NCBI RefSeq assembly: GCF_003334255.1 | Contig: NZ_QOWU01000001.1 | DNA from: Escherichia coli | Lineage (GTDB): Bacteria > Pseudomonadota > Gammaproteobacteria > Enterobacterales > Enterobacteriaceae | DNA length: 64,000 bases | Direction: 5' to 3' (one strand) | Shown: positions 37,074 to 39,752 of the stretch, piece by piece | Layout: every line of letters starts with the position of its first letter | Position numbering within the stretch: the first letter of the stretch is position 1 | The notes under the pieces: generated by a model | Told to the model about the DNA's origin: nothing | What the model saw: the letters and a program-made list of their open reading frames with translations, nothing else | Databases searched by the model: none | Position numbers and translations under genes: made by a program

Positions 37074-37838
37074 CTAATTCTTTCGTTGCTCCAGACGACG
37101 CAGAGAACGCTCACGGCGGCTCTCTTCACGACTTCTGTCGAGCAAAATTTCTTCGATAAAGGCCAGATGGCGATGCGATGCTTCGCGCGCTTCTTCCGGC
37201 TTACCGGCCATAATCGCTTCAAATATGCGGGTGCGGTGACTACTCACCAGCGGCAGCATCTCGCGACGCGAATAGAGCAATTCGAAGTTCTGGCGGACAT
37301 TCTGGGCCAACATCGGCTCCATACACCTTAGCAGATGAAGCAGAACCACATTGTGGGCCGCTTCGGTGACGGCAATCTGATACTGGAGTACGGCGTTTGA
37401 TTCCGCGTCCAGATCGCCAGACTGCTGCGCCAGCTCTATGGCGTGGTGGAGTTCACGGATGCGTTCCTTGTCTTCATCGGTACTACGCAGCGCGGCGTAA
37501 TAAGCGGCGATACCTTCCAGGGCGTGTCGTGTTTCGAGCAAGTCATACTGTGACTCAGGATGGTCGGAGAGCAGCTCCACCAGCGGATCGCTGAAGCTTT
37601 GCCATAGGCTGCTCTGGACAAAAGTGCCGCCACCCTGGCGACGAAGCAACAAGCCCTTCGCTTCGAGACGTTGAATCGCCTCACGCAAGGAGGGACGGGA
37701 GACGTCAAACTGTTTTGCCAGTTCGCGTTCCGGTGGGAGTTTTTCGCCCGGGCGGAGAGTGCCTTCGAGGATCAAAAACTCCAGTTGCTGCTCAATCACA
37801 TCGGAGAGTTTTGGTTGGCGGATTTTGCTGTAGGCCAT
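37074..37838 (-). CDS. pdhR: GntR-family transcriptional repressor of the pdhR-aceEF-lpd operon
   Basis: Trimmed to [54 protein letters not shown] (254 aa), ATG confirmed at 37836-37838; winged-HTH GntR N-terminus. Confidence 0.93.
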
Positions 37839-37869
37839 GAGTTCCTGTCTTAAGCCACTTGCCGAAGTC

Positions 37870-37886
37870 AATTGGTCTTACCAATT
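37870..37886. promoter_or_regulatory. PdhR operator (auto-regulatory site in the pdhR promoter)
   Basis: Perfect palindrome AATTGGTCTTACCAATT about 32 bp upstream of the pdhR start codon; matches the GntR-family/PdhR box as I recall it (ATTGGT...ACCAAT). Confidence 0.75.
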
Positions 37887-38290
37887 TCATGTCTGTGACG
37901 CTAAAGTAACAAAGTATTCACCTTATGTCCATACAGGTTTTGATTGAAATCATGAAACTGTGCACATTTTAACAACTTGACATATATAACGTTTCAAAGT
38001 TGTAACTATGCACAAATGTAGACTTTACGTAGGAAAGGAGTTTTTTAACGATTATTAAACTATAAAAATCCGAATTGAACCGATTCACTTACCAATTTTG
38101 TGATTTTTAATTCAATTAAAACGAATTTAAATTCATTCTACATATTGAGAGGGGTTGAGGCTGAGCTTTACAAACGGTTTCTTTTTAAGCAACTCATCTT
38201 CAACCATGCATAAAGCGGGTGCATTCGCTGCCGCATACCATTATTCTTGATCTGACGGAAGTCTTTTTGTAACAATTCAAACTTCTTTGA

Positions 38291-38308
38291 TGTAAACAAA
38301 TTAATACA
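38291..38308 (+). promoter_or_regulatory. TyrR box-like site upstream of aroP
   Basis: TGTAAAcaaattAATACA resembles the TyrR box consensus TGTAAA-N6-TTTACA; about 70 bp upstream of the aroP start. Confidence 0.5.
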
Positions 38309-38378
38309 ACAAACGGAATTGCAAACTTACACACGCATCACTGCGTAGATCAAAAAAACAACCACCGCACGAGGTTTC

Positions 38379-39752
38379 ATGATGGAAGGTCAACAGCACG
38401 GCGAGCAGCTAAAGCGCGGCCTTAAAAACCGCCATATTCAGCTTATCGCGCTGGGTGGCGCGATAGGGACCGGGTTATTCCTGGGTAGCGCCTCCGTAAT
38501 ACAGTCCGCAGGGCCAGGGATTATCCTGGGTTACGCCATTGCTGGTTTTATCGCCTTTCTGATCATGCGTCAGCTGGGTGAAATGGTGGTCGAAGAACCT
38601 GTCGCAGGCTCCTTTAGCCACTTTGCTTATAAATACTGGGGCAGTTTTGCCGGTTTCGCCTCTGGCTGGAACTACTGGGTACTGTACGTTTTAGTTGCCA
38701 TGGCTGAGCTGACTGCCGTGGGTAAATACATTCAGTTCTGGTATCCGGAAATCCCCACCTGGGTTTCTGCCGCCGTATTCTTTGTGGTGATTAACGCCAT
38801 CAACCTGACCAACGTTAAAGTGTTTGGCGAGATGGAGTTCTGGTTTGCCATTATCAAAGTTATCGCGGTGGTAGCGATGATCATCTTCGGCGGCTGGCTG
38901 CTATTCAGTGGCAACGGCGGCCCGCAGGCGACCGTTAGCAACCTGTGGGATCAGGGTGGTTTCCTGCCGCACGGCTTCACCGGGCTGGTGATGATGATGG
39001 CGATTATCATGTTCTCGTTCGGTGGTCTGGAACTGGTGGGGATCACCGCAGCAGAAGCTGATAACCCGGAGCAAAGTATACCGAAAGCAACTAACCAGGT
39101 TATCTACCGCATCCTGATTTTCTATATTGGTTCGTTAGCCGTTCTGCTCTCACTGATGCCGTGGACCCGCGTTACCGCCGATACCAGTCCGTTTGTGCTG
39201 ATCTTCCACGAGTTAGGCGATACCTTTGTGGCGAATGCGCTGAACATCGTGGTACTGACTGCGGCGCTCTCCGTGTACAACAGCTGCGTATATTGCAACA
39301 GCCGTATGCTGTTTGGTCTGGCACAACAGGGTAATGCGCCAAAAGCGCTGGCGTCTGTCGATAAACGTGGTGTACCAGTAAATACCATTCTGGTGTCTGC
39401 ACTGGTAACGGCGTTGTGCGTACTGATTAACTACCTTGCCCCAGAGTCCGCTTTCGGACTGTTAATGGCGCTGGTGGTATCTGCACTGGTAATCAACTGG
39501 GCGATGATTAGCCTGGCGCATATGAAATTCCGTCGCGCCAAGCAGGAACAAGGCGTGGTAACTCGCTTCCCTGCTCTGCTTTATCCGCTGGGTAACTGGA
39601 TCTGCCTGCTGTTTATGGCGGCGGTACTGGTGATTATGCTGATGACCCCAGGAATGGCGATTTCGGTATACCTGATCCCGGTATGGCTGATCGTGTTAGG
39701 TATCGGCTATCTGTTTAAAGAGAAAACCGCCAAAGCCGTAAAAGCGCATTAA
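38379..39752 (+). CDS. aroP: aromatic amino acid:H+ symporter (APC family)
   Basis: 457 aa, 12 predicted hydrophobic helices, MMEGQQHGEQLKRGLKNRHIQLIALGGAIGTGLFLG.... Confidence 0.93.
   Translation: MMEGQQHGEQLKRGLKNRHIQLIALGGAIGTGLFLGSASVIQSAGPGIILGYAIAGFIAFLIMRQLGEMVVEEPVAGSFSHFAYKYWGSFAGFASGWNYWVLYVLVAMAELTAVGKYIQFWYPEIPTWVSAAVFFVVINAINLTNVKVFGEMEFWFAIIKVIAVVAMIIFGGWLLFSGNGGPQATVSNLWDQGGFLPHGFTGLVMMMAIIMFSFGGLELVGITAAEADNPEQSIPKATNQVIYRILIFYIGSLAVLLSLMPWTRVTADTSPFVLIFHELGDTFVANALNIVVLTAALSVYNSCVYCNSRMLFGLAQQGNAPKALASVDKRGVPVNTILVSALVTALCVLINYLAPESAFGLLMALVVSALVINWAMISLAHMKFRRAKQEQGVVTRFPALLYPLGNWICLLFMAAVLVIMLMTPGMAISVYLIPVWLIVLGIGYLFKEKTAKAVKAH

Follow-up and report, generated by a model that had tools for sequence, protein, structure and literature searches.

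The 540-bp gap between the divergent pdhR and aroP starts (37839–38378 of the window, the whole 64-kb stretch of DNA that was analysed) is, with a probability of about 0.85, a control region common to two divergent promoters, each under its own regulation, and has no gene of its own. It is the well-studied aroP–pdhR control region of Escherichia coli K-12 and as such already known; it has 100% identity to MG1655 coordinates 121552–122091, in reverse orientation (MG1655 coordinate = 159930 - window coordinate). Both sites singled out in an earlier note on this DNA are published textbook operators, and the small RNA or small protein that it suggested for the centre is unsupported. According to the literature, pdhR is transcribed from 37896 with FNR acting at -50.5 and with CRP, ArcA, Cra and others also acting, and aroP is transcribed from its promoter P1 at 38254; the ~190 bp between the two would be spacer DNA in which length is held and in which two conserved, putatively protein-binding blocks (A and B) are set.

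Layout of the two divergent promoter regions

The pdhR gene is on the minus strand (37074–37838, with its start codon ending at 37838) and aroP is on the plus strand (38379–39752, with its ATG at 38379); the RefSeq annotation has no feature between them. The G+C content is 35% in the interval and 31% in its centre, compared with 51% in the whole window, and the earlier description of a divergent, AT-rich control region of ~540 bp agrees with these coordinates, with the composition and with the MG1655 identity. For comparison, the pdhR locus was fetched from 80 species of ~20 genera, and conservation counts were made on 79 genomes. The aroP and pdhR genes are divergent neighbours in 78 of the 80 species and are 524–653 bp apart.

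The pdhR transcript starts at an A located 58 nt before the ATG (PMC2759082), entered as 122034 in the Kim 2012 table of transcription start sites (TSS) and equivalent to window position 37896, such that the 5′ UTR is 58 nt long (37839–37896, minus strand). The PdhR operator, AATTGGTCTTACCAATT (37870–37886), is just downstream of this regulated start, at +11 to +27 of the pdhR transcript, and is the sole zero-mismatch match to AATTGGTNNNACCAATT in 64 kb, with 0.28 chance matches expected when two mismatches are allowed. The PdhR box also gives the strongest gSELEX peak, with a score of 14/14 at MG1655 122052 (PMC7660256, Anzai et al. 2020). The earlier note had placed a perfect 17-bp palindrome here, and both its position and its identity with the published PdhR operator stand. 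Its perfection is overstated, because the 7-bp arms (AATTGGT and ACCAATT) flank three central bases that are non-symmetric (CTT) and variable among genera (CTT, ATG, CAT, AAT and CTG); the arms are invariant in 79/79 genomes. As described in the literature, PdhR bound to this 7-3-7 operator blocks its own operon, and pyruvate releases it. The PdhR operator of the pdhR-aceEF-lpd promoter was reportedly described by Quail and Guest in 1995.

Upstream of the operator, the pdhR core promoter is placed from the published TSS and has a predicted extended -10 element (TGT-TACTTT; 37903–37911, minus strand). Neither this element nor the 11-mer TTGTTACTTTA varies in any of the 79 genomes, and the surrounding promoter block (37899–37958) is 91–100% conserved. 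It includes the FNR site TTGATTGAAATCAT (TTGAT-TGAA-ATCAT; 37940–37953), a motif match with one mismatch that is centred at -50.5 from the pdhR start. FNR motif matches across the window are not statistically unusual by themselves, and the site corresponds to an FNR ChIP-seq peak at 121,987 with a published position of -50.5 (PMC3688515); it is kept in all genomes compared, mostly as TTGATTGAAATCAG. The adjacent upstream region (37963–38018), containing GCACATTTTAACAAC, ATAACGTTTCAAA and TGTAACT.TGCACAAATG, has a conservation of 0.65–0.89 and probably holds activator or repressor sites, and the pdhR side as a whole (37860–38018) is 65–100% conserved. The aroP–pdhR spacer is among the gSELEX targets of ArcA, SdiA and PlaR, and all of FNR, ArcA, SdiA, PlaR, CRP and Cra are reported to target it. 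A CRP-like sequence, TGTGC-N6-TAACA (37959–37974), is half conserved, and we do not claim it as a site because its left half is present in only 3/79 genomes and the motif is not enriched in the window.

The major aroP promoter, P1, starts at 38254 on the plus strand (121676 in the Kim 2012 TSS table, with a 125-nt leader), from which a predicted -35 hexamer TGCATT (38220–38225) and a predicted -10 hexamer TATTCT (38242–38247) are placed; 78/79 genomes share this -10 and 63/79 share the -35. PMC7142922, citing Wang, Yang and Pittard, describes the promoters P1 and P2 and a divergent P3, and the positions used here were reconstructed from that secondary paper together with a TSS table. The published P3 -10 sequence, TGGTAT, has a single occurrence (38240–38235, minus strand), back to back with P1, and the published base differences in the P3 -35 (S. 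bongori CACTCT, three changes; UTI89, two changes; PMC7142922) fit only GACTTC at 38263–38258, which leaves a 17-bp spacer. This placement puts the P3 start near 38228, with transcription directed into the centre, toward pdhR. Since TGGTAT is present in only 15/79 genomes, P3 is lineage-restricted and P1 is universal.

The TGTAAA-N6-AATACA sequence that had been noted as a TyrR-like box is the published strong TyrR box of aroP (TGTAAACAAATTAATACA, with CAAATT as the N6; 38291–38308). In the P1 transcript it spans +37 to +54, and relative to the P3 start it lies at ~-71.5. It has two mismatches to the consensus, and G2, C17 and both half-sites are conserved while N6 varies. The window contains 20 TyrR-consensus matches at three or fewer mismatches against 25 expected from shuffles; the sequence alone therefore fails to single out 38291–38308, and it is the literature and the conservation that do so. 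A weak TyrR box, CGGAATTGCAAACTTACA (CGGAAT-TGCAAA-CTTACA; 38314–38331), is located on the aroP side of the strong box and has four mismatches to TGTAAA-N6-TTTACA while retaining G2 and C17. The two boxes are 23 bp apart, start to start (22–23 bp in 78/79 genomes), which puts them on the same helical face, and a deletion series in PMC7142922 likewise places the weak box between the strong box and aroP. The same paper, citing Wang, Yang and Pittard 1997, reports TyrR binding of the aroP boxes, with aromatic amino acids as cofactors, for K-12 and S. bongori. As summarized there, P1 is repressed when TyrR, bound with aromatic amino acids to the two leader boxes, draws RNA polymerase to P3, and the polymerase held at P3 shuts P1; P3 itself is described as very weak and ‘transcriptionally nonproductive’ in K-12. 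The aroP 5′ UTR is 125 nt long (38254–38378, plus strand), with its last ~60 nt varying in length between genera; insertions of 20–117 bp are found at 38357, at the end of the leader, in 20 genomes, and the stretch between the weak TyrR box and the interval end measures 48 bp at its shortest and 85 bp or more at its longest.

Conserved blocks and spacers of constant length

Conservation along the interval is sharply blocky in the 79-genome alignment. The operators behave as operators, the PdhR arms and TyrR half-sites being kept while the PdhR spacer and the TyrR N6 vary. Between the two promoter regions are three spacers, C1 (38019–38075), C2 (38090–38166) and C3 (38188–38208), that are separated by blocks A and B. 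Spacer identities to K-12 of 0.42–0.74 compare with a synonymous-site baseline, measured in pdhR, of 0.55–0.63; C1 and C3 are close to this baseline and C2 is below it. C1 is fixed in length and diverges at about the synonymous rate, with identities to K-12 of 0.58 in Salmonella and 0.48 in Klebsiella (synonymous baseline 0.63 and 0.55, respectively). C2 is hypervariable; its identity is 0.24–0.46 between genera and 0.66 within Escherichia against a synonymous baseline of 0.93, and it is ~20% divergent between K-12 and the E. coli strains 200177 and EC17CM6, the flanks of which differ by <1%. One of the short A/T palindromes reported earlier for the centre, GAATTTAAATTC, is real and is a perfect 12-bp palindrome, although its location is 38123–38134 rather than 38121–38132; it sits within C2 and is lost even inside E. 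coli, where other strains carry GAATTTATATTC. An 11-nt sequence overlapping the block A–C2 boundary (38088–38098) is an exact direct repeat of 37877–37887 and duplicates CTTACCAATTT, which forms the right half of the PdhR box; this duplicate is confined to Escherichia, where E. albertii and Escherichia sp. E1V33 also have it, and is not conserved in other genera.

Distances between the conserved elements are held. The FNR site and block A are 134–137 bp apart in 79/79 genomes, blocks A and B 94–95 bp apart in 69/79, block B and the P1 -35 50 bp apart in 72/79, and the pdhR and aroP P1 -10 elements 338–341 bp apart in 72/79. The argument for a constraint on length was made with no formal null model, and has the variable aroP leader in the same alignment as its only control. 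Spacing this constant suggests that factors at the blocks and at both promoters need set distances, which might serve e.g. looping, wrapping or helical phasing.

Block A (AGTGAATCGGTTCA; 38076–38089, minus strand) has a palindromic core, TGAA-CCGA-TTCA, and is located at about -186 from the pdhR start, -172 from aroP P1 and +146 from P3. No other sequence in the 64 kb matches the Cra consensus RSTGAAWCSNTHHW perfectly, with 0.54 such matches expected per window; matches to the 14-mer Cra motif are not statistically unusual by themselves at window scale. Its identity is 0.86–1.0 in all genera except Serratia, and Cra ChIP-exo data put pdhR within the Cra regulon (PMC5888115). From its sequence, block A is a candidate Cra (FruR) operator. 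There is a weaker Cra-like site inside pdhR (37670–37683), and the ChIP-exo target could instead reflect this intragenic site. Block B (TTTACAAACGGTTTCTTTTTA; 38167–38187) has a conservation of 0.75–0.84. In the literature examined, no published factor assignment was found for either block.

The usp island at the aroP–pdhR locus

About 1,060 of 5,424 complete E. coli genomes have no contiguous K-12-type interval, and the three examined (CFT073, KC-Dl-1 and SCU-123) all carry the usp toxin island, PAIusp, seen as a gene annotated tssD and immunity genes between pdhR and aroP. The 593-aa product of the island contains Hcp, S-pyocin and colicin/pyocin DNase domains, as described for Usp. Both the location of PAIusp between pdhR and aroP and its transcription from P3 are published (PMC7142922), and the window itself represents the empty K-12 state of this locus. 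In B2-type strains with PAIusp, the otherwise idle P3 drives usp.

PAIusp interrupts block B; the insertion follows TTTAC, at the equivalent of 38171/38172. When the 3,894 bp of the island are excised in silico, an interval of 545 bp that retains both blocks is restored; the insertion is therefore clean, and the centre did not come from the island. Each island junction has a block-B-like 20-mer (15/20 identical), and this direct repeat is not significant, since 60 of 500 shuffles score equally well. The island haplotype is the same as K-12 over the first 181 bp of the interval and ~62% identical beyond, with its left variable part closest to Citrobacter and Salmonella (80–84%). This pattern of divergence suggests, from sequence comparison, that PAIusp arrived together with ~360 bp of promoter DNA of foreign origin, in which the P1 -10 is altered. 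A replacement of K-12 positions 191–370 by PAIusp was also considered and was rejected, as sensitive alignment and reconstruction show that 3,894 bp were inserted cleanly into a haplotype that is strongly diverged. In Superficieibacter sp. 1612_C1, this site holds a usp remnant of like orientation that is frameshifted, truncated and 76–77% identical to Usp residues 1–185 and 224–386; the intergenic DNA beside it, including block A, has been lost.

Readings of the centre and comparison with known systems

The earlier note saw no ORF of 60 aa or more in the central 300 bp, which holds (the longest ORF entirely within the interval is 44 aa), and left room there for an unannotated small RNA or small protein, for which Rfam, folding, conservation, TSS, Term-seq and Ribo-RET data give no support. 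A small non-coding RNA made from P3 (~38228, minus strand) or from an unmapped promoter, and ending before the pdhR promoter, is very unlikely. P3 is a real TyrR-activated promoter aimed into the centre, according to PMC7142922, and an imperfect 13-bp hairpin (38153–38165/38193–38205) is located 23 nt downstream of its start; however, the literature calls P3 nonproductive in K-12, its -10 is intact in a minority of genomes, and the sequence downstream of it is the most variable part of the region, even inside E. coli. Searches of the interval gave no Rfam match and no intrinsic terminator-like site on either strand; the fold stability of 38029–38228 shows no excess over shuffles on the two strands (z = -1.2 and -0.6), and the consensus energy for a conserved RNA structure in the 79-genome alignment is ~0 on both strands. 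A consensus promoter scan found zero promoters, and because it also misses the four experimentally known, non-consensus promoters there, this result carries no weight. The earlier note had tied its suggestion to transcription initiating or terminating within 37950–38250, and had pointed to TSS and Term-seq data. Initiation does occur there, at P3, although the Kim 2012 table has only the aroP and pdhR starts among its listed entries, the P3 TSS being missing; the published Term-seq tables have no 3′ end in 121552–122034 among those listed. These tables, and the Ribo-RET table, come from a small number of growth conditions, in none of which were the aromatic amino acids that activate P3 added, a point in favour of a P3 transcript.

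A small protein, such as one from the 24-aa ATG ORF at 38207–38133 (minus strand) or the 37-aa ORF at 38100–38213 (plus strand), is extremely improbable. ORFs of 24–44 aa are present and the 24-aa ORF starts ~21 nt past the P3 start, but the central ORFs are intact in only 1–5% of 78 other genomes, no Shine-Dalgarno sequence is seen by inspection before the 24-aa ORF, and RefSeq annotates no protein here, yet annotates YacM nearby. In the Ribo-RET table, the ribosome-profiling data against which small ORFs could be checked, there is no initiation peak in the centre among those listed, which may come from one strand only. GTG and TTG frames in 37901–38015 are ‘intact’ in 79–90% of genomes, and this is not read as coding conservation because these frames precede the mapped pdhR start and occupy promoter DNA that hardly varies; one Ribo-RET peak at the pdhR start, assigned to a TTG ‘ORF’ of three codons within the -10 region, is treated as an artefact, being at or upstream of the mapped start. 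That the centre is instead a mobile-DNA scar, left by loss of PAIusp or another island and not native regulatory DNA, is highly improbable. The locus is an island site, the Superficieibacter remnant is decayed with its neighbouring DNA gone, C2 is hypervariable within E. coli and the centre has a low G+C content, all of which fit a scar. The K-12 centre is not one, however, because island-free genomes of all genera share the interval length, the blocks and the block order; it also has no similarity to island sequence, and the PAIusp strain minus its island retains both blocks. The centre could also be functionless filler, its constant length reflecting no more than rare indels or the way the sequences align, with the two blocks as outlying promoter parts. 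This too is unlikely, for all that the spacers have identities near or below the synonymous baseline, block B has no demonstrated binding factor and the motif matches alone are not significant at window scale. Indels are frequent where they are tolerated in the same alignment, at the end of the aroP leader, and the block distances are kept within 1–2 bp despite 55–75% sequence divergence. Moreover, blocks A and B are 170–190 bp and 67–88 bp, respectively, from the nearest starts and are therefore too distant for core promoter elements.

The preferred reading is thus that of a control region shared by two divergent promoters, with spacers of held length. A more specific version, in which the centre would act as a ‘molecular ruler’, constrained in length but not in sequence, with a single looped or wrapped complex coupling aromatic amino-acid uptake (aroP) to pyruvate-dehydrogenase control (pdhR) via the fixed-distance blocks A (Cra) and B, is tentative and rather doubtful; if it were true, the PAIusp insertion in block B would break the aroP–pdhR coupling in B2 strains. 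The comparative leads are modest: a fixed spacing, two distal conserved blocks, the exact insertion point of the island and its foreign flanks. That the divergent promoters stay at the same distance in most genomes while the intervening DNA diverges at about the synonymous rate may be of use to specialists, and the presence of the usp genotoxin island of uropathogenic strains in block B raises the question of whether aroP/pdhR regulation differs between commensal and B2 strains.

Compared with known systems, the PdhR box has no difference from the published operator (AATTGGTnnnACCAATT, 14/14), being the same sequence at the same position (122052), just downstream of the start. [quoted passage not shown] Block A resembles Cra (FruR) operators (RSTGAAWCSNTHHW/gcTGAAtCGaTTCAgc) in being perfect over 14 nt and palindromic, and pdhR is a reported in vivo target of Cra; it differs in its distance of ~170–190 bp upstream from either main promoter, long for simple repression. 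With PAIusp as reported in 2020, the locus and the Hcp, S-pyocin and DNase architecture of Usp are shared, and the insertion point in block B, the junction 20-mers, the haplotype break at 181 and the Superficieibacter remnant are added by the present analysis.

The usp/imu island and its insertion point

The 3.9 kb usp/imu island (PAIusp) is present between pdhR and aroP in approximately one-fifth of complete E. coli genomes (three island loci examined). The loci concerned are L005 1023–5461, L002 (the CFT073 assembly), L003 and L004. The insertion is clean and lies inside the conserved block B, at the position equivalent to 38171/38172 of the window, and a block-B-like 20-mer flanks the island on both sides. 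In the K-12 window this site is empty.

The island-bearing haplotype (L005) is identical to K-12 across the first 181 bp beside pdhR and only ~62% identical thereafter; past this point its distance from K-12 is that of a different genus. The diverged flanks (L005 1204–1358 and 5249–5461) are equivalent to window 38020–38378, and the nearest relatives of the left part of the haplotype are Citrobacter and Salmonella. The aroP P1 −10 hexamer, which is invariant elsewhere, is changed from TATTCT to TATCTT. Taken together, the flank divergence, the Citrobacter and Salmonella affinity and the altered −10 suggest that foreign promoter DNA was imported along with the island.

The spacer C2 and an 11-nt repeat

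The spacer C2 (38096–38166) shows ~20% divergence between K-12 and the E. coli strains 200177 and EC17CM6, whereas the remainder of the interval differs by less than 1% in the same comparison. C2 is a local intraspecies hot spot of either divergence or recombination. An exact 11-nt direct repeat, CTTACCAATTT, is located at 37877–37887 and 38088–38098; the second copy corresponds to a PdhR half-site adjoining block A (the candidate Cra operator). E. albertii and Escherichia sp. E1V33 retain this copy, whereas other genera do not.

Promoters, an implied leader RNA and the pdhR side

A consensus promoter scan of 37700–38500 found no promoter; this region contains four experimentally mapped promoters (pdhRp and aroP P1, P2 and P3), all with non-consensus hexamers. 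In one condition, Term-seq tables list a minus-strand 3′ end that falls on the start codon of pdhR (37837; MG1655 122093), which implies a ~60-nt pdhR leader RNA that includes the PdhR-box hairpin. In the CFT073 assembly (CP158446.1; L002 4143–5447) an IS3-family element lies upstream of pdhR, ~142 bp from the ATG and at roughly −84 relative to the transcription start (equivalent to ~37980), cutting off the pdhR core promoter from all upstream DNA. A Cra-like sequence, GTTGAATCGCCTCA (two mismatches), is situated within the pdhR coding region at 37670–37683. A passage in PMC5888115 describes the Cra ChIP-exo signal as ‘downstream of two promoters’, and this intragenic sequence is an alternative candidate site from which the signal could stem.

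A usp remnant in Superficieibacter

Superficieibacter sp. 1612_C1, of a genus absent from the list in the PAIusp paper, has a decayed usp gene between aroP and pdhR (L060 4020–6000), and block A and neighbouring intergenic DNA are deleted at this locus. The remnant is without the DNase domain and immunity genes, and consists of two fragments with 76–77% identity to Usp residues 1–185 and 224–386.
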